Below are positions 2 to 57,112 of a DNA stretch of 64,000 nucleotides, in pieces. A program made the position numbers and the translations under genes. The first letter of the stretch is position 1. Each line of letters begins with the position of its first letter. Under the pieces are notes generated by a model, which was not told the DNA's origin, made no database searches, and saw nothing but the letters and a program-made list of their open reading frames with translations. This stretch comes from Escherichia coli (GTDB lineage: Bacteria; Pseudomonadota; Gammaproteobacteria; Enterobacterales; Enterobacteriaceae), in the NCBI RefSeq assembly GCF_044324785.1, contig NZ_CP172127.1. One strand, given 5' to 3'.

Positions 2-910
2 TCGCCTAAAGTTATAGAAAGAATTGAGTTTCTTTCTCAAAAAAAAGTATGCTTTCATGAAGGCGATATAAGAGATGAAAGATTTTTGAAATCTGTTTTT
101 AAGGAACATGTCATTACGACGGTAATTCATTTTGCTTCACTTAAATCTGTTTCTGAATCTATTTTAATGCCCATTGAATATTATGATAATAATATTTCTG
201 GAACTCTGACCTTGTTGAAGGTAATGAATTGTTTTGGTGTTAATAATTTTATCTTTAGTTCATCTGCAACAGTTTATGGTACTCCTTCTAGAATTCCGCT
301 TGATGAGTCGTGTGATACTGGAGATACTACAAATCCATATGGAACTTCAAAACATTTTTTGGAGCAGATATTGATTGATACACAACGTGCTAATCCTGCA
401 TTAAATATTATGCTACTGAGGTATTTTAATCCTGTCGGAGCCCATTCATCAGGTTTCATCGGCGAGGACCCGAATGGAATTCCAAATAATCTATTTCCAT
501 ATATTACCCAAGTGGCCATTGGAAGATTACCGAGGTTGTCAATATTTGGAGATGATTATCCAACCGAGGATGGCACTGGAGTAAGAGATTATATACATGT
601 TATGGATTTAGCATCTGGTCATGTTGCTGCTCTCAATAGACAGCCTGTTTTAACGGGATTGCGGTGTTACAATCTTGGCACAGGGAAAGGTTATTCAGTC
701 AAAGAGATTGTTGAAACTTTTCAAAAAATAACTGGAAAAAAAATACCATATATTGTTTCTGCACGTCGTCCCGGTGATATAGCAGAATGTTGGTCGTCAC
801 CAGAGTTAGCTAAAAAAGAACTTCATTGGGAAGCTAAGCGTAGTCTTGAGGATATGGTTATTGATGCTTGGAACTGGCAAAATAATAATCCAAATGGATA
901 TTTAGAATGA
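2..910 (+). CDS. UDP-glucose / UDP-GlcNAc 4-epimerase (GalE/Gne family); 5' end lies outside the window
   Basis: Frame of ORF 86..910 stays open back to nt 2. Translation (..FHEGDIRD..FSSSATVYG..LLRYFNPVGAH..DYPTEDGTGVRDYIHV..) matches the GalE short-chain epimerase family. AT-rich like O-antigen cluster genes, directly upstream of gnd. Confidence 0.8.
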   Translation, partial: SPKVIERIEFLSQKKVCFHEGDIRDERFLKSVFKEHVITTVIHFASLKSVSESILMPIEYYDNNISGTLTLLKVMNCFGVNNFIFSSSATVYGTPSRIPLDESCDTGDTTNPYGTSKHFLEQILIDTQRANPALNIMLLRYFNPVGAHSSGFIGEDPNGIPNNLFPYITQVAIGRLPRLSIFGDDYPTEDGTGVRDYIHVMDLASGHVAALNRQPVLTGLRCYNLGTGKGYSVKEIVETFQKITGKKIPYIVSARRPGDIAECWSSPELAKKELHWEAKRSLEDMVIDAWNWQNNNPNGYLE

Positions 911-1027
911 TGTTATATTATTTCTTTTAAAGGCAGTCTGCTACTATCAATATTTTGTTTGAAATAGTCTAATATATGATTCCAAAACCGCATACATCGC
1001 GGTGAACACCCCTGACAGGAGTAAACA

Positions 1028-2434
1028 ATGTCAAAGCAACAGATCGGCGTCGTCGGTATGGCAGTGATGGGGCGCAACCTTGCGCTCAACATCGAAAGCC
1101 GTGGTTATACCGTCTCTATTTTCAACCGTTCCCGTGAGAAAACGGAAGAAGTGATTGCCGAAAATCCAGGCAAGAAACTGGTTCCTTACTATACGGTGAA
1201 AGAGTTTGTTGAATCTCTGGAAACGCCTCGTCGCATCCTGTTAATGGTGAAAGCAGGTGCAGGCACGGATGCTGCTATTGATTCTCTCAAGCCATACCTC
1301 GATAAAGGCGACATCATCATTGATGGTGGTAACACCTTCTTCCAGGACACCATCCGTCGTAACCGTGAGCTTTCTGCTGAAGGCTTTAACTTCATTGGTA
1401 CCGGTGTCTCCGGTGGTGAGGAGGGCGCACTAAAAGGTCCTTCCATTATGCCTGGTGGGCAGAAAGAAGCCTATGAACTGGTTGCGCCGATCCTGACCAA
1501 AATCGCCGCAGTGGCTGAAGACGGTGAGCCATGCGTTACCTATATTGGTGCCGATGGTGCAGGTCACTATGTGAAGATGGTTCACAACGGTATTGAATAC
1601 GGCGATATGCAGCTGATTGCTGAAGCCTATTCTCTGCTTAAAGGTGGCCTGAATCTTTCCAACGAAGAACTGGCGCAGACCTTTACCGAGTGGAATAACG
1701 GTGAACTGAGCAGCTACCTGATCGACATCACCAAAGATATCTTCACCAAAAAAGATGAAGACGGTAACTACCTGGTTGATGTGATTCTGGATGAAGCAGC
1801 AAACAAAGGTACGGGCAAATGGACCAGCCAGAGTGCGCTGGATCTCGGCGAACCGCTGTCGCTGATTACCGAGTCTGTGTTTGCACGTTATATCTCTTCT
1901 CTGAAAGATCAGCGTGTTGCCGCATCTAAAGTTCTCTCTGGTCCGCAAGCACAGCCAGCAGGCGATAAGGCTGAGTTTATCGAAAAAGTTCGTCGTGCGC
2001 TGTATCTGGGCAAAATCGTTTCTTACGCTCAGGGCTTCTCTCAGCTGCGTGCGGCGTCTGAAGAGTACAACTGGGATCTGAACTACGGCGAAATCGCGAA
2101 GATTTTCCGTGCTGGCTGCATCATCCGTGCGCAGTTCCTGCAGAAAATCACCGATGCATATGCCGAAAATCCGCAGATCGCTAACCTGCTGCTGGCTCCG
2201 TACTTTAAACAAATTGCCGATGATTACCAGCAGGCGCTGCGTGATGTCGTTGCTTATGCAATACAGAACGGTATCCCGGTTCCGACCTTCGCCGCTGCGG
2301 TTGCCTATTATGACAGCTACCGTGCCGCTGTTCTGCCTGCGAACCTGATCCAAGCACAGCGTGACTATTTCGGTGCGCATACTTATAAGCGCATTGATAA
2401 AGATGGTGTGTTCCATACCGAATGGCTGGATTAA
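1028..2434 (+). CDS. gnd: 6-phosphogluconate dehydrogenase, decarboxylating
   Basis: 468 aa, [21 protein letters not shown].. recognised as Gnd; ATG with upstream AGGAG. Confidence 0.97.
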
Positions 2435-2462
2435 TCTGATTTAAATCAATTAATCAATGCAA

Positions 2463-2491
2463 GGCCCGGAGAAACCCTCCGGGCTTTTTTA
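2463..2491 (+). terminator. Rho-independent terminator after gnd
   Basis: GC hairpin ggcccggag-aaac-cctccgggc followed by a T run. Confidence 0.6.
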
Positions 2492-2682
2492 TTATACAAA
2501 GCGGCAGGTTATGGCCTTTTTTTATAATTTATAGTTAAAAACGCGATATAATACAGCGCCGCACAGCAGGATCGCTGCCTTGACAGTTCATCTACATCAG
2601 CGTTAAAAATCCCGCAGTAGATGAAGTTGTGGTGGTGGACTAATGACCACTCTAAATGTTTAACCGGAAGAAGTCAGAGCTA

Positions 2683-3849
2683 ATGAAAATAACAATTTCA
2701 GGAACAGGTTATGTTGGTCTTTCAAATGGTATTCTGATTGCGCAAAATCACGAAGTGGTTGCACTGGATATCGTTCAGGCCAAAGTGGACATGCTTAACA
2801 AGAAGCAGTCACCGATTGTTGATAAGGAGATTGAAGAGTATCTGGCGACTAAAGATCTCAATTTCCGCGCTACGACAGATAAGTATGACGCGTATAAAAA
2901 TGCCGATTACGTTATTATTGCCACGCCTACCGATTATGACCCGAAAACAAATTATTTTAATACCTCAAGCGTGGAAGCGGTCATTCGCGATGTGACAGAA
3001 ATTAATCCTAATGCTGTCATGGTGATTAAATCTACAATTCCGGTAGGTTTCACCAAATCAATTAAAGAACGTCTGGGTATCGATAACCTTATTTTCTCTC
3101 CGGAATTTCTCCGTGAAGGTAAAGCCCTTTACGATAATCTCCATCCTTCACGTATTGTCATTGGTGAGCGTTCAGAACGCGCAGAACGTTTTGCTGCGTT
3201 GTTACAGGAAGGGGCGATTAAGCAAAATATCCCGACCCTGTTCACCGATTCAACCGAAGCAGAAGCGATTAAACTTTTCGCTAATACCTATCTGGCGATG
3301 CGCGTAGCATACTTTAATGAACTGGATAGCTATGCAGAAAGTTTAGGTCTGAATACTCGCCAGATTATCGAAGGCGTTTGTCTCGATCCGCGTATTGGCA
3401 ACCATTACAACAATCCGTCGTTTGGTTATGGTGGTTATTGTCTGCCGAAAGATACCAAGCAGTTACTGGCGAACTACCAGTCTGTGCCGAATAACCTGAT
3501 TTCGGCAATTGTCGATGCTAACCGCACACGTAAAGACTTTATTGCCGATGCCATTTTGTCACGCAAACCGCAAGTGGTGGGTATTTATCGTCTGATTATG
3601 AAGAGCGGTTCAGATAACTTCCGTGCGTCTTCCATTCAGGGGATTATGAAGCGTATCAAGGCGAAAGGCGTTGAAGTGATCATCTACGAACCGGTGATGA
3701 AAGAAGACTCATTCTTCAACTCTCGCCTGGAACGTGATCTCGCGACCTTCAAACAACAAGCCGACGTCATTATCTCTAACCGTATGGCAGAAGAGCTTAA
3801 GGATGTGGCAGATAAGGTATACACCCGCGATCTCTTTGGCAGTGACTAA
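2683..3849 (+). CDS. ugd: UDP-glucose 6-dehydrogenase
   Basis: Starts [16 protein letters not shown] (388 aa) at an internal ATG of ORF 2656..3849; Rossmann GxGxxG motif. Confidence 0.95.
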
Positions 3850-3992
3850 CATCCTGTTATCAGGGCGATTTTCGCCCTGATTCTCTTATGTTCCCTTTGT
3901 AATAATTCATTATTTTTATCATTTATCCTATAGCATTCATGGCGATTATCGCTAAACTATGGCGACTTAAAATTATTTCGTCCGTTAGGGTA

Positions 3993-4973
3993 ATGATGAG
4001 AGTAGAAAATAATAATGTTTCTGGGCAAAACCATGACCCGGAACAGATTGATTTGATTGATTTACTGGTGCAGTTGTGGCGTGGCAAGATGACAATTATC
4101 ATCTCTGTCATTGTTGCTATTGCCCTGGCTATAGGGTATCTGGCCGTTGCCAAAGAAAAGTGGACTTCCACAGCTATCGTTACTCAACCTGATGTGGGGC
4201 AAATCGCTGGTTATACCAACGCGATGAATGTGATCTACGGATCGGCTGTACCGAAAGTCTCCGACATTCAGGCTTCACTTATCGGACGTTACAGCACTGC
4301 ATTCTCAGCATTAGCGGAAACGCTGGATAACCAGGAAGAAGCAGAAAAGCTGACCATTGAGCCTACCGTTAAAAATCAGTCATTACCTTTAGCGGTTTCT
4401 TATGTGGGTGAAACACCTGAAGGTGCGCAGAAACAGCTGGCGAAGTATATCCAGCAAGTTGACGACCAGGTAAACGAAGAACTGGAAAAAGACCTGAAAG
4501 ACAACATCGCGCTGCGTATGAAAAACTTGCAGGATTCGCTGAAGACCCAGGAAGTGGTCGCGCAGGAGCAGAAAGATCTGCGTATCCGTCAGATTCAGGA
4601 AGCGTTGCAGTATGCGAATCAGGCGCAGGTGACAAAGCCACAGGTTCAGCAGACTGAAGATGTGACACAAGACACGTTGTTCCTTTTGGGGAGCGAAGCG
4701 CTGGAGTCGATGATTAAGCATGAGGCGACCCGTCCGTTGGTGTTCTCGCCAAACTACTATCAGACTCGTCAAAACCTGCTGGATATCGAAAGCTTAAAAG
4801 TTGATGATCTTGATATTCATGCTTACCGTTATGTGATGAAACCGACGTTACCTATTCGTCGCGATAGTCCGAAAAAGGCAATCACCTTGATTCTGGCGGT
4901 GCTGCTGGGCGGCATGGTTGGCGCGGGGATTGTGCTGGGGCGTAACGCTCTGCGTAATTACAACGCGAAGTAA
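3993..4973 (+). CDS. wzzB: O-antigen chain length determinant (Wzz, polysaccharide co-polymerase)
   Basis: Translation MRVENNNVSGQNHDPEQIDLIDLL.. with C-terminal TM segment and proline/glycine motif; start chosen at the internal ATG pair of ORF 3939..4973. Confidence 0.9.
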   Translation: MMRVENNNVSGQNHDPEQIDLIDLLVQLWRGKMTIIISVIVAIALAIGYLAVAKEKWTSTAIVTQPDVGQIAGYTNAMNVIYGSAVPKVSDIQASLIGRYSTAFSALAETLDNQEEAEKLTIEPTVKNQSLPLAVSYVGETPEGAQKQLAKYIQQVDDQVNEELEKDLKDNIALRMKNLQDSLKTQEVVAQEQKDLRIRQIQEALQYANQAQVTKPQVQQTEDVTQDTLFLLGSEALESMIKHEATRPLVFSPNYYQTRQNLLDIESLKVDDLDIHAYRYVMKPTLPIRRDSPKKAITLILAVLLGGMVGAGIVLGRNALRNYNAK

Positions 4974-4995
4974 TCTTTTCGGTTTTAAAGAAAAA

Positions 4996-5028
4996 GGGCA
5001 GGGTGGTGACACCTTGCCCGTTTTTTTT
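4996..5028. terminator. Bidirectional intrinsic terminator between wzzB (+) and hisI (-)
   Basis: Hairpin gggcagggtggtgacaccttgccc flanked by a T run on the plus strand and an A run (T run on minus) upstream; a second inverted repeat follows at about 5029-5057. Confidence 0.55.
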
Positions 5029-5069
5029 GCCGGATGCGACAACAATATCGCATCCGCTTACCCCGCAAC

Positions 5070-5674
5070 TCACTGATGCCGTTTACGCAGGTTCTCAATC
5101 ACCGTCGTTAAATCCAGATCCTGATCCTGCAACAATACCAGCAGGTGATACATCAAGTCAGACGCCTCGTTGGTGAGTTCAAAGCGGTCATGTACCGTTG
5201 CTGCTAGTGCGGTTTCCACGCCTTCTTCGCCCACTTTCTGTGCAATGCGTTTGGTGCCGCTGGCATACAGTTTGGCGGTGTAGGAGGTTTCCGGGTCGGC
5301 AGATTTACGTTCGGCGAGCAGTTGTTCCAGTTGATACAGGAACAGCCACTGGTGAGCGGTGTCGCCGAAGCAGCTGCTGGTGCCTTTGTGGCAGGTTGGT
5401 CCGATAGGATTCGCCAGTACCAGTAGCGTGTCGTTGTCGCAGTCCGGCGCAATATTTACTACGTTGAGGAAATTGCCCGACGTTTCGCCTTTGGTCCACA
5501 GCCGTTGTTTAGTGCGCGAGAAGAAGGTGACTTTGCCGCTTTCGATGGTTTTGTCTAAAGCTTCCGGGTTCATATAGCCCAGCATTAGCACTTCACCGGA
5601 TACCGCGTGTTGCACAATCACCGGCATAAGTCCGTCGGTTTTTTCCCAGTCCAGTTCGCGACGTTGTTGTTCTG

Positions 5675-5681
<7 letters not shown>
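5070..5681 (-). CDS. hisI: Bifunctional phosphoribosyl-AMP cyclohydrolase / phosphoribosyl-ATP pyrophosphatase
   Basis: 203 aa, [25 protein letters not shown].. recognised as HisIE. Confidence 0.95.
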
Positions 5682-7759
<2,078 letters not shown>

Positions 7760-7760
<1 letters not shown>

Positions 7761-8826
7761 TACAGCACTCCTTTCGACGAGGGCAGGGTATCGCCTTCCA
7801 CGCGGATGGCCTGGCGCAGGGTGCGACCAAAGGCTTTGAACAGGCTCTCTACACGGTGGTGATCGTTTTTACCTTTGGTTTTCAGGTGCAACGTCACGCC
7901 CATGGTGTAAGAGAGCGAACGGAAGAAGTGCTCGATCATCTCGGTGCTGAGATCGCCGACGCGCTGGTAGGTAAATTCAGCTTTATATTCCAGGTGTGGG
8001 CGACCAGAGATATCCAGTGCACAGCGGGCAAGGCATTCGTCCATCGGCAGCACAAAACCAAAGCGGCAAATACCGCGTTTGTCACCGAGGGCAATTTTTA
8101 ATGCTTCGCCCAGCGCCAGGCCGGTATCTTCGACGGTGTGGTGATCGTCGATATAGAGGTCGCCTTTGACGTTGATTTCCATACGGAAACCGCCGTGGGT
8201 AGCGATCTGATCCAGCATGTGATCAAAGAAGCCAACGCCGGTGTTAATCTTGCTGCCACCTTCGCGATCCAGCCACACCTGGACGTCAATCTGCGTCTCT
8301 TTGGTGTTGCGCACTACATGGGCGTAACGGTCTCGTTTCGTGAGTTGCTCGCCAATCATCGGCCAGTTCAGGGTTTCGCGGTTGTAGCGTAAACCATTAA
8401 TGCCCATGTTTTCCGCCAGTTGAATGTCGGTCGCGCGATCGCCAATCACATAACTGTTGGCGCGATCCATCGCTTGCTCAGCCAGGTAACGCTCCACCAG
8501 TTTTACTTTCGGCTTACGGCAGTCGCACTCATCGGCGGGCAGGTGCGGACAAATCAGCACTTCATCAAACTGCACGCCTTGCGAGGTGAAGATCTGCATC
8601 ATCAGGTTGTGCGGGCCATCAAAATCCGCCTGCGGGAAACTTTGTGTTCCAAGACCATCCTGATTAGTGATCATCACCAGCTTGTAGCCCGCTTTTTGCA
8701 GCTTCAGCAGCTCCGGGATCACGCCTGGTTCAAAGGCGAGTTTGTCAAAACGGTCCACCTGAAAATCACTCGGCGGTTCGCTAATCAGGGTTCCATCGCG
8801 ATCGATAAAAAGATACTTCTGACTCA

Positions 8827-8827
<1 letters not shown>
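7760..8827 (-). CDS. hisB: Bifunctional histidinol-phosphatase / imidazoleglycerol-phosphate dehydratase
   Basis: [15 protein letters not shown].. HisB; second ATG of ORF 7760..8830 taken as start. Confidence 0.93.
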
Positions 8828-11198
<2,371 letters not shown>

Positions 11199-12299: not shown

Positions 12300-12523
12300 A
12301 AAAGTCTCTGTGAATGTTTATTCAACTGATGTCATTTAACCTAAACCACTTTCACGTTAGAAAGCAAGGGCTTTTTTATATATTTTATGGCGATGGATTT
12401 GTTTAATGAATGAGCGGGGAAAGGTGGGGGCCAGGAGTGACTACGTTAGAAAAGTAATCGTGAAAATATGTCTTTAAAACCCTCAAGAACATTGTGTTCT
12501 GTAACTAAAGTGGGCTTTGTTCC

Positions 12524-12557
12524 TGCCGGATGCGGCGTGAATGCCTTATCAGGTCTA
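12524..12557. repeat. REP (repetitive extragenic palindromic) element
   Basis: gccggatgcggcgtgaatgccttatcaggtctac matches the E. coli REP consensus; lies in the hisL-yeeZ intergenic region. Confidence 0.6.
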
Positions 12558-12725
12558 CAAATGTTGCCTAAATTCAATATATTGATGTTTTTGTAGGACT
12601 GATAAGCGGAGCGCATCAGTCAATGGTATATTTGCTAACAGTTTCGATTTCATTCATAGAATGAATTGTCAGTTTTGATACGCTAGCGTAGCCTTATAGA
12701 TCTAAGGTGTATCAGGAGATAACGG

Positions 12726-16150: not shown

Positions 16151-16168
16151 TCATCTTTTCTAATAATA

Positions 16169-16207
16169 AACCGGAGTCGAATGAATATTTGGCTCCGGTT
16201 TTTTTAT
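16169..16207 (+). terminator. Rho-independent terminator after plaP
   Basis: Hairpin aaccggag..ctccggtt followed by a run of 8 T. Confidence 0.65.
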
Positions 16208-16328
16208 TCTTTTTTATCGATATCCTCATTAATAACCATTTGTTCTAATTTAGAGAATTTGGTTATTGGTCTGCATTCCACCAGTCATGAATAATTTCCC
16301 TATTAACATTCATCTGGTTAATTAATTT

Positions 16329-17387
16329 ATGTTTTCAATGATATTAAGCGGGCTAATTTGTGGTGCTCTGCTGGGATTTGTCATGCAGCGTGGGCGTTTT
16401 TGCCTGACAGGTGGTTTTCGCGATATGTATATCGCAAAAAATAATCGCATGTTTTACGCCTTGCTGATTGCAATTTCGGTACAAAGCGTGGGGGTTTTTG
16501 CGTTAATTCAGGCGGGCCTACTGACTTACGAAGCCGGGGCGTTCCCGTGGCTTGGTACTGTTATAGGTGGGTATATCTTCGGGCTGGGAATTGTTCTGGC
16601 GGGTGGATGTGCCACCGGGACCTGGTATCGCGCGGGTGAGGGATTGATCGGCAGTTGGATCGCGCTTTTCACTTATATGGTGATGAGTGCGGTGATGCGT
16701 TCTCCACATGCCAGTGGTTTAAATCAAACCTTGCAGCACTACAGTACTGAACATAACTCTATTGCTGAGACTTTTAATTTGTCTGTGTGGCCGTTGGTTA
16801 CCGTTTTGCTGGTGATAACGCTCTGGGTGGTGATGAAAGAGTTGAAGAAGCCAAAACTCAAAGTCGCGACCTTACCGCCGCGCCGAACCGGGATCGCTCA
16901 TATTCTGTTTGAAAAACGCTGGCATCCCTTTGTCACTGCTGTACTCATCGGTTTGATTGCGCTTTTAGCCTGGCCCCTGAGTGAAGCAACCGGACGCATG
17001 TTTGGGTTAGGAATCACTTCCCCAACGGCCAATATTCTGCAATTTCTGGTCGCGGGTGACGTGAAATACATTAACTGGGGCGTTTTCCTGGTGTTAGGGA
17101 TCTTCGTGGGGTCATTTATTGCAGCCAAAGCGAGCCGTGAGTTCCGCGTTCGCGCAGCTGATGCACAAACAACATTACGTAGCGGGTTAGGTGGTGTACT
17201 GATGGGCTTCGGTGCCAGTATTGCAGGTGGTTGCTCTATCGGTAATGGACTGGTTATGACTGCAATGATGACCTGGCAGGGCTGGATTGGCCTTGTATTT
17301 ATGATTCTCGGAGTCTGGACTGCGTCCTGGCTTGTGTATGTTCGACCGCAGCGTAAGGCGCGACTGGCAACTGCTGCGGCAAATTAA
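16329..17387 (+). CDS. yeeE: Inner membrane transporter YeeE (thiosulfate uptake, TsuA-like)
   Basis: 352 aa, MFSMILSGLICGALLGFVMQRGRFCLTGGF.. YeeE/YedE family with conserved Cys motifs. Confidence 0.92.
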   Translation: MFSMILSGLICGALLGFVMQRGRFCLTGGFRDMYIAKNNRMFYALLIAISVQSVGVFALIQAGLLTYEAGAFPWLGTVIGGYIFGLGIVLAGGCATGTWYRAGEGLIGSWIALFTYMVMSAVMRSPHASGLNQTLQHYSTEHNSIAETFNLSVWPLVTVLLVITLWVVMKELKKPKLKVATLPPRRTGIAHILFEKRWHPFVTAVLIGLIALLAWPLSEATGRMFGLGITSPTANILQFLVAGDVKYINWGVFLVLGIFVGSFIAAKASREFRVRAADAQTTLRSGLGGVLMGFGASIAGGCSIGNGLVMTAMMTWQGWIGLVFMILGVWTASWLVYVRPQRKARLATAAAN

Positions 17388-17400
17388 GTAAGGTGTAAAG

Positions 17401-17628
17401 ATGGCGATTAAAAAGCTGGATGTGGTGACGCAGGTCTGTCCGTTTCCACTCATAGAAGCAAAAGCAGCACTGGCAGAAATGGCCAGCGGCGATGAGTTGG
17501 TAATTGAGTTTGATTGCACCCAGGCAACTGAAGCAATCCCACAGTGGGCGGCAGAAGAAGGACATGCCATCACCGATTATCAGCAGATTGGCGATGCAGC
17601 GTGGAGCATCACCGTTCAAAAAGCCTGA
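17401..17628 (+). CDS. yeeD: TusA-like sulfurtransferase YeeD
   Basis: 75 aa with CPFP motif (MAIKKLDVVTQVCPFPLIEAK..), immediately downstream of yeeE. Confidence 0.92.
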   Translation: MAIKKLDVVTQVCPFPLIEAKAALAEMASGDELVIEFDCTQATEAIPQWAAEEGHAITDYQQIGDAAWSITVQKA

Positions 17629-17670
17629 CTCAACATTGTCCTCCGCCGTACCAGCGGCGGAGGCTTCAAA

Positions 17671-19098
17671 TTAGACGATCTCTTCCGCGTACTGCCAAAG
17701 CGCTTTTAACAGCGCCACTTTCTCTTTGTTATCGGCATATTGTTGTGCCAGCATCTGCAATTCATCTGCATAACCCTGTAAAAACTCTGGCGTGAAGACC
17801 TGGCGGCGGTGCTCCAGCCAGCGTTGCTGCTCGGCATAATCCAGCGTCCCCGGGAAGTTGCGCGCCCGATAATTGAACAACAGCTTTTCAATTCGTTTAT
17901 CAACAAAAGTGATATCCAGTGCCGGTAAATTACGCGGCTCGGTTTCCAGCACAATTTTCATTGCTGCACGATCGGCGTCACTGAAAAAGCCATTATAAAG
18001 CTGTGCATCCACATTATCTGAAGGTGTAAACGGTTCGGCTTCCGCGAATATCGCTACCACTTTTTCACGCACTTGCGGATTTTCACGCAGAATTTTTAGG
18101 TTATCGAGGCAATGCTGACGATTAATTCCCAGTCGGTCGGCATCTTCCGGGCGTAGCGTATTCGCCTGGGCCAGTACCGGACATTTATTGATATGCACCA
18201 GCTTAACCGGAACGGCGGCGTTATCGCCAAGATCGGCTTTTGCGGTATATAAACGCTCGCGCAATGTGTCGCTATCCAGTTCCAGTAATGGCGAAATGTC
18301 TCCTGCCAAATCCACCATAATTACGGCATTGCGATTTTCAGGATGCCACGCCAGCGGTGCTACCCAGCTGGTATTGCCGCGCCATGCCCCAAACATTCCG
18401 GAAACGTGAACCAGGGGTTTCATCTGCGGAACATCAATCAACGCCATTAGTTTGTGTTTATTACGATGGGTAAAGAGATAATCAAACAGGCGCGGCTGGC
18501 GCGTTTTTACCAGTTTTGCCATCGCAATAGTGGCGTACACATCAGCCATCGCATCGTGTGCGTTGCTATGTTCAATACCATTCGCTTTGGTTAAATGCTC
18601 AAGGCGAAAGCTCGGTAGACCGTCATCATTTTCAGGCCAGTTTATTCCTTCCGGGCGCAGGGCATAACAGGCACGCATAACATCCAGCAAATCCCAGCGC
18701 GAGTTATCATGCTGCCAGCTCCAGGCGTAAGGATCGTAGAAATTACGATAAAAAACGTTGCGTGTGACTTCGTCGTCGAAACGCACATTGTTGTAGCCCA
18801 GAATACAGGTCTTCGGTACGGTAAAAAGCGAGTGAATACGGGCGGCAAACGCGGCTTCGTTTTCTCCTTTCGCCCGTGCTTCCTGCGGGGTAATACCGGT
18901 AATTAATACTGCTCCAGGCTGGGGTAAATAGTCATCCGCGGGCTTGCAGTAAAAGACTTCGGGTTCGCCGATGACATTGAATTCGCTATCGGTGCGAATG
19001 GCTGCGAACTGTGCAGGGCGATCTAACGCGGGGTGCGTGCCAAAGGTTTCGTAATCGTGAAACAAAAAGGTAGATTGTTGCTTACCGTCATTCATCAT
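17671..19098 (-). CDS. sbcB: Exodeoxyribonuclease I
   Basis: MMNDGKQQSTFLFHDYETFGTHPALDRPAQFAAIRTD.. SbcB (475 aa); internal ATG of ORF 17671..19146. Confidence 0.95.
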   Translation of the reverse strand: MMNDGKQQSTFLFHDYETFGTHPALDRPAQFAAIRTDSEFNVIGEPEVFYCKPADDYLPQPGAVLITGITPQEARAKGENEAAFAARIHSLFTVPKTCILGYNNVRFDDEVTRNVFYRNFYDPYAWSWQHDNSRWDLLDVMRACYALRPEGINWPENDDGLPSFRLEHLTKANGIEHSNAHDAMADVYATIAMAKLVKTRQPRLFDYLFTHRNKHKLMALIDVPQMKPLVHVSGMFGAWRGNTSWVAPLAWHPENRNAVIMVDLAGDISPLLELDSDTLRERLYTAKADLGDNAAVPVKLVHINKCPVLAQANTLRPEDADRLGINRQHCLDNLKILRENPQVREKVVAIFAEAEPFTPSDNVDAQLYNGFFSDADRAAMKIVLETEPRNLPALDITFVDKRIEKLLFNYRARNFPGTLDYAEQQRWLEHRRQVFTPEFLQGYADELQMLAQQYADNKEKVALLKALWQYAEEIV

Positions 19099-36880: not shown

Positions 36881-39800
36881 ATGAGCGGAAAACCGGCAGC
36901 ACGTCAGGGCGATGCCACAATGAAAGGTGGCCCGATAGTCCAGGGGTCGGCAGGCGTGAGGATTGGCGCGCCAACCGGCGTGGCCTGTTCAGTGTGCCCC
37001 GGCGGATTCACTTCCGGTAACCCGGTGAATCCGCTGCTCGGTGCAAAAGTACAGCCCGGCGAAACCGATTTCGCGCTGCCCGGCCCGTTACCGTTCGTGC
37101 TCTCCCGCACCTACAGCAGCTACCGGACGAAAACCCCTGCGCCCGTCGGTATCTTCGGTCCTGGCTGGAAAGCACCCTTTGATATCCGCTTACAGATACG
37201 CGATAACGAACTGATACTCAATGATAACGGTGGCAGAAGCATTCATTTTGAGCACCTGTTTCCCGGTGAGGATGGCTTCAGCCGCAGCGAATTATTCTGG
37301 CTGGTGCGCGGCGGCGTGGCGAAACTGAATGAAAGTCACCGTCTTGCCCCACTCTGGCAGGCTCTGCCGGAAGAACTCCGCATGAGTCCGCATATTTATC
37401 TGGCGACGAACAGTCCGCAGGGGCCGTGGTGGATACTCGGCTGGAGTGAGCGGGTACCGGGTGTGGATGAGGTGCTGCCTGCGCCATTGCCGCCGTACCG
37501 GGTGCTGACCGGCCTGGTGGACCGCTTCGGGCGTACCCTGACCTTCCGGCGTGAGGCAGTTGGCGAATTTACCGGGGAAATCACCGGCGTGACCGATGGC
37601 GCAGGCCGTCAGTTCCGCCTGGTGCTGACCACGCAGGCGCAGCGGGCGGAAGAGGCCCAGCAGCAGGCGGTTGCAGCCGGAGCAAAACGACCAGATATCC
37701 CGGTTTCATTGCCGGACTATACAGAATATGGCCGGGATAACGGCATCCGCCTGTCAGCGGTGTGGCTGGCGCATGACCCGGAATACCCGGAGAATTTACC
37801 TGCCGCGCCACTGGTGCGCTACGACTGGACGCCACGCGGTGAACTGGCGGCGGTGTATGACCGCAGCGGTACGCAGATGCGCCACTTTACTTACGATGAT
37901 AAATACCGGGGCCGGATGGTGGCGCACCGTTACGCAGGCAGGCCGGAGATGCGTTACCGCTACGACGACATCGGGCGCGTGACGGAACAACGTAATCCGG
38001 CGGGTTTAAGCTACACCTATCAGTATGAGAAAAACCGCATCATCATCACCGACAGCCTGAACCGGTGCGAGGTGCTGCATACAGAAGGCGAAGCCGGGCT
38101 GAAACGGGTGGTGAAAAAAGAGCACGCTGACGACAGCGTCACACAGAGTCAGTTCGATTCCATTGGCCGCCTTCAGTCACAGACGGATGCGGCAGGCCGG
38201 ACGACAGAATACAGTCCGAATGTGGTGACGGGTCTCGTCACACGCATCACCACGCCGGACGGCAGGAAATCGGAATTTTACTATAACAACCAGAACCAGT
38301 TAACCTCAGCATCCGGGCCTGACGGACTGGAAATGCGCAGGAAATATGATGAGTACGGGCGTCTGACGCAGGAAACCGCTCGCAACGGCGATATCACCCG
38401 CTACAGTTATGATAATCCGCACAGTGAATTACCCTCTGCAACTGAAGATGCGACGGGTAGCCGCAAGCAGATGACGTGGAGCCGTTACGGGCAGTTACTG
38501 ACTTTCACCGACTGCTCAGGCTACCAGACCCGTTATGAATACGACCGCTTTGGTCAGATGACGGCGGTCCACCGTGAGGAAGGTGTCAGTCTTTACCGCA
38601 GCTATGACAGCCGTGGTCAGTTAATCTCGGTGAAAGATACGCAGGGCCGTGAAACGCAGTATGAGTACAACGGTGCAGGCGACCTGACCGCCATTATCAC
38701 GCCAGACGACAACAGAAGCGAGACACAGTACGATGCGTGGGGAAAGGCCGTCAGTACCACGCAGGGCGGGCTGACGCGCAGCATGGAATACGACGTTGCC
38801 GGACGTGTCATCAGCCTGACCAACGAGAACGGCTGTCACAGCGACTTCAGTTACGATGTGCTCGACCGCCTGATACAGCAGAGCGGCTTTGACGGGCGGA
38901 CGCAACGTTACCGTTACGACCTGACCGGGAAACTCACGCAGAACGAGGATGAGGGGCTTGTCACCCTCTGGCACTACGACGAATCGGACCGTATCACACA
39001 CCGCACGGTGAACGGCGAACCGGCAGAGCAGTGGCGGTATAACGACCACGGCTGGCTGAAAGAAATCAGCCACCTGAGCGAAGGTCACCGGGTGGCGGTG
39101 CATTACGGCTATAACCGTAAGGGACGTCTCACCGGCGAGCGCCAGACGGTGCATAACCCGGAGACGGGGGAACTGCTCTGGCTGCATGAGACAAAACACG
39201 CCTACAACGAACAGGGTCTGGCAAACCGCGTCACGCCGGACTGCCTGCCTGCTGTGGAGTGGCTGACCTACGGCAGCGGTTACCTGGCGGGGATGAAGCT
39301 GGGCGACACGCCGCTGCTGGAGTACGCGCGCGACCGCCTGCACAGAGAAACGGTGCGCAGCTTTGGCAGCATGGCAGGCAGTAATGCCGCATACGAACTG
39401 ACCAGCACATACACCCCTGCAGGCCAGTTACAGAGCCAGCACCTGAACAGCCTGGTGTATGACCGTGACTACGGGTGGAATGACAACGGCGACCTGGTGC
39501 GCATCAGCGGCCCGCGACAGACGCGGGAATATGGCTACAGCGCCACGGGCAGGCTGGAGAGTGTGCGCACCCTCGCACCGGACCTGGACATCCGCATCCC
39601 GTATGCCACCGACCCGGCGGGCAACCGGCTGCCGGACCCGGAGCTGCACCCGGACAGTACACTCACGGCGTGGCCGGATAACCGCATCGCCGAAGACGCG
39701 CATTACCTGTACCGTTACGATGAATACGGCAGGCTGACGGAGAAGACGGACCGCATCCCGGCGGGTGTGATACGGACGGACGACGAGCGGACCCACCACT

Positions 39801-41062
39801 ACCACTACGACAGCCAGCACCGTCTGGTGTTCTACACGCGGATACAGCATGGCGAGCCACTGGTCGAGAGCCGCTACCTCTACGACCCGCTGGGACGGCG
39901 AATGGCGAAAAGGGTATGGCGGCGGGAGCGTGACCTGACGGGGTGGATGTCGCTGTCGCGTAAACCGGAGGAGACATGGTACGGGTGGGACGGCGACAGG
40001 CTGACGACGGTGCAGACTGACACCACGCGTATCCAGACGGTGTACCAGCCGGGAAGCTTCACGCCGCTCATCAGAATCGAAACAGACGTGACCGAACTGG
40101 AGAAAGCGCAGCGGCGAAGCCTGGCGGAGAAGTTACAGCAGGAAGGGAGTAAAGATGGTCACGGCGTGGTGTTCCCGCCTGAACTGGTGCGGCTGCTGGA
40201 CAGGCTGGAGGGGGAAATCCGGGCAGACCGTGTGAGTGACGAAAGCCGGGCGTGGCTTGCGCAGTGCGGGCTGACGGTGGAGCGGCTGGCGGCACAGATC
40301 GAGCCAGTTTATTTGCCTGAGCGAAAAATACATCTTTATCACTGCGACCACCGGGGACTGCCGCTGGCGCTTATCAGTACTGAAGGTGCAACGGAATGGC
40401 GTGGGGAGTATGACGAGTGGGGGAATCAGCTTAATGAGGAGAACCCGCATCATCTGTTCCAGCCATACCGCCTGCCGGGGCAGCAGTACGATGATGAATC
40501 GGGGCTGTGCTATAATCGTTATCGTTACTACGAGCCGTTACAAGGGAGGTATATTACACAGGACCCGATTGGGTTAAATGGGGGGTGGAATTTATATAAA
40601 TATCCGCTGAATCCAATAAATTATGCAGATCCTCTTGGCTTAGCCGTAGATATAAACCACTTCCCAGTCAACGAAGACATACGAAATTATGCAGAGAAAG
40701 TTTGGAATAATCCTAATATCATTACAATTGGAACACATGGTGATCCTCAATCAGTATATGATGAAAATTATAATAAGATAGATGTCAAGACATTAGCTAA
40801 TGAGGTTCGAAATCATCCTAAATTTAAACCTGGAATGTCAGTAAGACTGTTATCCTGTAATACAGGAAAAGGAAATAACTCTTTTGCACAGCAATTGGCA
40901 GATGAACTAGGTGTGAGAGTCTATGCTCCTGACCAATATGACTGGTACTATTCAAATGGTAAGGTAGAGCCTTGGGGAGGATTCTATGATGCAAACAATC
41001 AATTGCAAATGGACACGAATCAGCCTGGACATGAGTTTACATTCAAGCGAAGGAAACCATAG
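36881..41062 (+). CDS. Rhs-family polymorphic toxin: N-terminal PAAR-like domain, YD-repeat core, variable C-terminal toxin domain
   Basis: 1393 aa; N-terminus [38 protein letters not shown] (PAAR-like); many YD repeats (..RYRYDDIGR.., ..YEYDRFGQ..); core ends in the PxxxxDPxGL motif ([14 protein letters not shown]); SD AAGGAT upstream. Confidence 0.95.
40643..41059 (+). other. Variable C-terminal toxin domain of the Rhs protein (139 aa, low GC)
   Basis: Sequence after [144 protein letters not shown]. Clear drop in GC relative to the core. Confidence 0.8.
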
Positions 41063-48299: not shown

Positions 48300-56915
<8,616 letters not shown>

Positions 56916-57112
56916 GCTTACCTTCCCTGAACGAGCTAACATAAATGCGCCCTTTCTAGCACAGCGAAAAAAAGTAAATCCTGATAGCAATATGATTGAA
57001 AATTAATAACTTTTCGTTAAGCAGTTTTGAGTGTGAGTTGCAAGAGGGGAGACTACTGAATTACTCAAGTTTTATAATCGAGGGGAAAATGGTGATGGCG
57101 TTCATAGCAAAA

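Follow-up and report, generated by a model that had tools for sequence, protein, structure and literature searches.

The first 910 positions of the 64,000-nt stretch of Escherichia coli DNA analysed here (contig NZ_CP172127.1; hereafter the window) hold the end of an epimerase gene lying directly before gnd. The locus raises three questions: which kind of 4-epimerase is encoded, to which O-antigen cluster the gene belongs, and which sugar of the O unit makes it necessary. The reading favoured here, to which a probability of about 85% is assigned, is that positions 2-910 are the distal 90% of the gne gene of serogroup O22, whose product would be an NAD+-dependent SDR-type epimerase of the GalE/Gne clade supplying UDP-GalNAc; from the sequence comparisons below we infer its substrate range and its role in vivo. 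The gene was already known and its earlier interpretation was correct. The details added are the assignment to serogroup O22, UDP-GalNAc as the sugar nucleotide and, within the 5' portion of gnd, a recombination junction. The O22 cluster, the O22 structure and the gne/gnu logic have all been published already.

The truncated gene and its predicted active site

On the plus strand, frame 2 is free of stop codons from base 2 until the TGA at 908-910, which gives 302 codons plus the stop (909 nt). The full-length orthologue has 338 amino acids; the 5' end of the gene, named galE by RefSeq, is cut by the window edge, so that 302 of the 338 codons (37-338) are inside the window and codons 1-36 fall before its base 1. 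The GGTGYIG NAD-binding motif, residues 7-13 in the 99.8%-identical orthologue, lies upstream of the window as well, and the start of intact gne reads MKILITGGTGYIGSH.... The first-pass annotation had described an AT-rich gene of the GalE/Gne family with a codon composition shifted against that of gnd, and both parts of this description are borne out. The window product scores 376.5 bits (E=8.6e-113) against the NCBIfam GalE equivalog model TIGR01179, with a curated cut-off of 262.3 bits, and, lacking codons 1-36, 409.5 bits against the subfamily model NF007956, with a cut-off of 394 bits; the Pfam families Epimerase and GDP_Man_Dehyd are also matched. The GC content of 2-910 is 35.5% with a GC3 of 22%, as compared with 50.2% and 52% in gnd and 49.3% GC in the entire window.

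The gne product aligns without gaps to residues 1-336 of E. coli GalE and, at 54-60% identity and likewise ungapped, to many solved GalE structures, of which Bifidobacterium longum GalE (6k0g), human GALE (1hzj) and the E. coli Y299C mutant (1lrk) score best. Conservation extends to S124, Y149 and K153 in the catalytic site and, in the pocket, to K84, N199 and the sugar-binding N179. In the alignment to E. coli GalE, the plus-strand codon of the catalytic Ser124 (TCT) is placed at 263-265 and the YxxxK catalytic motif at 338-352, with Tyr149 at 338-340 and Lys153 at 350-352. In the GalE family, Tyr149 together with Ser124 and Lys153 deprotonates the 4'-OH of the sugar, and the C4 hydride is passed to an NAD+ that the enzyme holds tightly; the 4-keto intermediate formed in this way rotates in the pocket before the hydride comes back on the opposite face. 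With the family thresholds passed and the catalytic residues present, the predicted product is a UDP-hexose 4-epimerase of GalE/Gne clade A (SDR1E).

The position that bears on the choice of substrate is residue 299, the gatekeeper of the sugar pocket, whose codon (TGT, plus strand, 788-790) was located in alignments to 1lrk, 1hzj and 6k0g. The gne product has Cys here, as do B. longum GalE (Cys299) and human GALE (Cys307), whereas E. coli GalE has Tyr299; among the 120 closest protein clusters of a large database, Cys stands at the equivalent position in 119 and Tyr in none. Two published studies (PMC6668579; PMC3682973) describe enzymes with Tyr or Leu at this position as acting on UDP-Glc/UDP-Gal only and those with Cys or Ser as accepting UDP-GlcNAc/UDP-GalNAc; they also report a roughly 230-fold gain on UDP-GalNAc for E. 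coli GalE Y299C and the loss of this activity in human C307Y. Because residue 299 is a small Cys and not a bulky Tyr, in line with the Cys or Ser of the Ishiyama group 2/3 pocket, the pocket should admit N-acetylated substrates. GalE and Gne enzymes are interleaved within one clade (PMC3682973), so the substrate range is not fixable from sequence alone. The identification of the gene as gne follows from the need of the O22 unit for UDP-GalNAc together with the content of its cluster.

Serogroup O22 and its need for UDP-GalNAc

The gene content just upstream of gnd had been called serotype-specific, the epimerase had been placed last in its O-antigen cluster, and a homology search had been proposed for assigning the serotype; the first two of these points are upheld by the genome comparison. 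Among 5,426 complete E. coli genomes, searched at a nucleotide identity of at least 95%, positions 1-1030 of the window are matched along their full length in nine only: six at 99.7-99.8%, the O22:H8 strain RM10809-3 among them, and three at 98.5%, including NCTC9022. In the remaining genomes the match begins only at about 985, in the conserved gnd leader, and the next-best E. coli DNA matches to gne do not exceed 66%. The gene of RM10809-3 (WP_050864005.1) is the same gene, with 99.8% nucleotide identity and one substitution in 909 nt; that of the reference strain NCTC9022 is 98.5% identical and occupies the same slot directly before gnd. Loci were inspected in seven of the nine carriers, and all seven have wzx and wzy genes of the 'O22 family' directly upstream of gne, in the order galF, GT4, GT, GT2, wzy ('O22 family'), acyltransferase, GT, wzx ('O22 family') and gne. 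In each of them gne is the terminal gene of the cluster, and gnd, ugd, wzzB and the his operon follow; in the window, the gnd ATG lies at 1028. In the three loci that were fetched with longer flanks, a Gnu-type Und-PP-GlcNAc 4-epimerase gene is found upstream of galF. With 99.8% identity to the gene that ends the O22 cluster, the gene at the window edge thus points to O22. The main text of Iguchi et al. (2015) makes no mention of O22. As the window includes neither the start of gne nor the remainder of the cluster, the O22 genotype and the intact copy in the window strain rest on this exclusive association in other genomes. This 0.9-kb fragment suffices for a provisional O22 assignment of the strain, and a requirement of the O unit for UDP-GalNAc can be predicted from it.

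Downstream of the cluster, 117 nt separate the gne stop from the gnd ATG. An AT-rich, O22-specific spacer at 911-984 (plus strand), defined by the point at which matches in non-O22 genomes begin, is followed by the conserved gnd leader at 985-1027 with its Shine-Dalgarno sequence AGGAG at 1017-1021. In comparison with both O22 reference alleles, one nucleotide is missing from a run of C in the leader (1008-1011; CCCC in place of CCCCC), about 5 nt before the Shine-Dalgarno sequence. A scan between gne and gnd found no terminator-like site; the terminator of gnd itself lies at 2461-2487. A promoter scan of the same interval found no strong promoter; its single weak match, at 861-889, is within chance expectation. 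The terminal gene of an O-antigen cluster is generally transcribed as part of the operon, and gne would be co-transcribed with the O-antigen cluster as its last gene.

The chemical structure of the antigen indicates why such a gene would be required. For the O polysaccharide of strain 4s, which is O22-like, a preprint (bioRxiv 10.1101/2021.06.09.447823) gives two GalpNAc, one Galp, one GlcpA and Glc, with O-acetylation at position 3 of one GalNAc; this strain has been described as an O22 with additional glucosylation. Table S2 of Cunneen et al. (2013) lists two main-chain GalNAc residues for O22 and marks it 'need gnu' as well as 'need gne', scoring each of the two genes as 'present and correct'. 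In the scheme of these authors, the initial Und-PP-GalNAc arises through WecA and Gnu, and a later GalNAc needs UDP-GalNAc supplied by a clade A Gne (Cunneen et al., 2013). The O22 cluster contains four glycosyltransferase genes and one acyltransferase gene, with ugd downstream for GlcA, and this content fits a five-sugar, O-acetylated unit. The earlier expectation of an O antigen with a 4-epimerised sugar is thus confirmed by the two GalNAc and one Gal of the O22-type unit, and the residue actually requiring gne can be narrowed down to what is probably the non-initial GalNAc. In the proposed mechanism, the gne product would interconvert UDP-GlcNAc and UDP-GalNAc; like enzymes of the group 2 type, it probably acts on the pair UDP-Glc/UDP-Gal too. 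The UDP-GalNAc would be required in vivo for that GalNAc of the repeat unit which is non-initial and 3-O-acetylated, while the initial GalNAc would be formed on the lipid carrier by WecA and Gnu, the gnu gene being located beyond the window, upstream of galF.

The presence of one Gal in the O22 unit, along with the RefSeq name 'UDP-glucose 4-epimerase GalE' and the GalE equivalog model being passed, could also be accounted for by a plain GalE that acts on UDP-Glc and UDP-Gal only and provides extra UDP-Gal for this single residue. This is unlikely, as residue 299 is Cys and not Tyr, E. coli already has a housekeeping galE in the gal operon, and the non-initial GalNAc needs UDP-GalNAc, for which the O22 cluster offers no other candidate gene. 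It is extremely improbable that the product is not a UDP-GlcNAc epimerase but a 4-epimerase of the lipid-linked Gnu type (Und-PP-GlcNAc) or of the uronic-acid type (GnaB/WbpP, Gla), even though one superfamily includes them all and the name 'Gne' was formerly used for each. With the Gnu whose gene precedes galF in the same O22 genome, the identity is 23%, the score against the TviC/GnaB-type model is 38.7 bits with a cut-off of 760, and the O22 unit has GlcA and neither GalA nor GalNAcA. On these grounds the plain-GalE, Gnu and GnaB readings were rejected in favour of a UDP-GalNAc-supplying Gne.

The window allele differs from that of the O22:H8 strain at two points, the substitution of A by C at nt 645 and the 1-nt deletion at about 1008. 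The former changes His251 to Pro (codon 644-646, plus strand) and is specific to the window. Residue 251 lies in a hypervariable, indel-prone surface loop, and on that account H251P is probably neutral. A non-functional gne copy in the window strain, through a lesion in the first 108 nt or upstream or through H251P itself, is very unlikely: the 302 visible codons are uninterrupted, the catalytic and pocket residues are intact, and the substituted residue belongs to the variable loop just described. The 5' end being outside the window, H251P being unique among the nine complete genomes, and the occurrence of frameshifted O22 clusters are the points in its favour. Decay of O22 clusters does occur, since frameshifts are found both in RM10809-3, where GT2 is affected (locus L001, 10865-11733), and in LD91-1 (locus L011, 6080-7741 and 11894-12909), where one glycosyltransferase gene is truncated and both GT2 and gne are frameshifted.

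The junction in gnd and the chromosomal background

The gnd gene (1028-2434, plus strand), encoding 6-phosphogluconate dehydrogenase, is the housekeeping flank of the O-antigen cluster. Over bases 1-1000 the window differs from RM10809-3 at a single position (0.1%), whereas from about 1141-1285 onward the divergence is 3-5% and continues through gnd, ugd, wzzB and the his operon. The two strains thus share gne, with the window allele carrying H251P, and differ in their gnd allele. Downstream, the window backbone is closest to strain N3, with 99.9% identity over 27001-52000 and 98.3-99.3% over 1008-27016; N3 itself has an unrelated O-antigen cluster with fnl/wecB-type genes. Over the first 25 kb, the best complete E. 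coli genome reaches about 97.6%. The jump in divergence from the O22:H8 strain, together with the N3-like downstream sequence, argues that the O22 cluster end including gne has been joined to a different chromosomal background, with the crossover placed by these alignments in the 5' part of gnd, at about 1045-1285. By the same alignments, the chromosome around the O-antigen locus appears as a mosaic. Hitch-hiking of gnd with the neighbouring cluster is a well-known pattern. The abrupt rise in divergence just inside gnd cleanly illustrates lateral O-antigen cluster exchange between E. coli lineages and is not new biology. As a separate observation, gnd itself looks like a mosaic of O22-lineage-like and N3-like segments.

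Because an O22-type gne is joined here to a gnd and a backbone of non-O22 lineage, the upstream cluster might also be hybrid or new. A strain of non-standard O22 type, in which only the terminal gne module is shared with O22, is quite unlikely, as is the alternative that H251P alters the properties of the enzyme, and a standard O22 cluster ending in gne is preferred.

Several other differences from the compared genomes, and some further features, were observed in the backbone. Between hisL and yeeZ (12442-12649) the yefM-yoeB toxin-antitoxin pair is absent and a spacer of about 200 bp that remained unmatched takes its place; at this site the pair is present in RM10809-3, NCTC9022 and LD91-1 and absent in N3. 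The region 16152-17673 with tsuA/tsuB (yeeE/yeeD; ORF 16329-17387) is present in RM10809-3 and LD91-1 and has no counterpart in N3 and NCTC9022. Four tRNA-Asn genes (27119, 29528, 31352 and 57228) and one tRNA-Ser(CGA) gene lie within 27119-58384. The window also contains an ORF for an RHS core protein (36881-41062), just upstream of which Rfam models place an EFASI RNA (34851-34978) and a C4 antisense RNA (36413-36501), and an ORF of 2,896 aa with Ig-like domains (48300-56990).

Comparison with known epimerases

The housekeeping GalE of the gal operon (1udc) has the same fold and length as the O22 gne product and an identical catalytic triad, and the two align ungapped over residues 1-336. 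The amino acid identity is, however, 54%, residue 299 is Tyr in GalE and Cys in the O22 enzyme, the GC content of the housekeeping gene is 54% as against 34% for gne, and galE sits with galT and galK, whereas gne is found in the O-antigen cluster before gnd. The location before gnd, Cys299 and the 54% identity rule out that the gene is the housekeeping galE. In their pocket residues, Lys84/85, Asn199/200 and Cys299/307, the bifunctional group 2 enzymes human GALE (1ek5/1hzj) and B. longum GalE (6k0g) agree with the O22 product at about 55-60% identity, but these are housekeeping or catabolic enzymes and not products of O-antigen cluster genes. Gnu (Z3206 type), an Und-PP-GlcNAc 4-epimerase, is a member of the same superfamily and is also needed for the O22 unit, for its initial GalNAc; it differs in belonging to clade D, in its lipid-linked substrate and in its locus upstream of galF.

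The first-pass annotation had raised the possibility that the closest homologues might be housekeeping galE genes and not genes of O-antigen clusters. This is not the case, since the nearest relatives outside O22, at 63-67% identity, also end O-antigen clusters before gnd, while GalE stands at 54%. Genomic context outside E. coli was read for two of these relatives. One (P0005, 67%) is located in a fully syntenic O22-like cluster that has the same gene order and ends in the epimerase before gnd, and the other (P0020, 63%), from Citrobacter sedlakii, is the terminal O-antigen cluster gene directly before gnd. The closest relatives with a readable context are thus terminal O-antigen cluster genes, with Cys or Ser at position 299. 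The contig that contains P0005 (L010, from Logan SRR24155040) carries at 1071-9014 a cluster that matches that of O22 completely, gene for gene, at 49-67% amino acid identity, with rmlB/rmlA-like genes between gnd and ugd. Its gnd is only 87% identical in DNA to that of the window, and therefore its host is taken to be another enterobacterium and not E. coli. This diverged cluster suggests that genera share an O22-like antigen, and, like the jump in divergence just inside gnd, it speaks for gne being inherited together with its cluster.

The systems most similar to O22 gne within the species are the galE paralogues of the O107/O117, O116, O128 and O89/O101/O162 clusters, which are likewise AT-rich and mostly the last gene before gnd. 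Together with an untyped gene that precedes gnd in strain B19374 and a further gene that neighbours ABC-transporter genes, they have 56-59% amino acid identity to the O22 gene product, 34-40% GC and Cys or Ser at position 299. The Gne enzymes of these other serogroups are nevertheless no closer than this to that of O22, each serogroup having its own deeply diverged allele.
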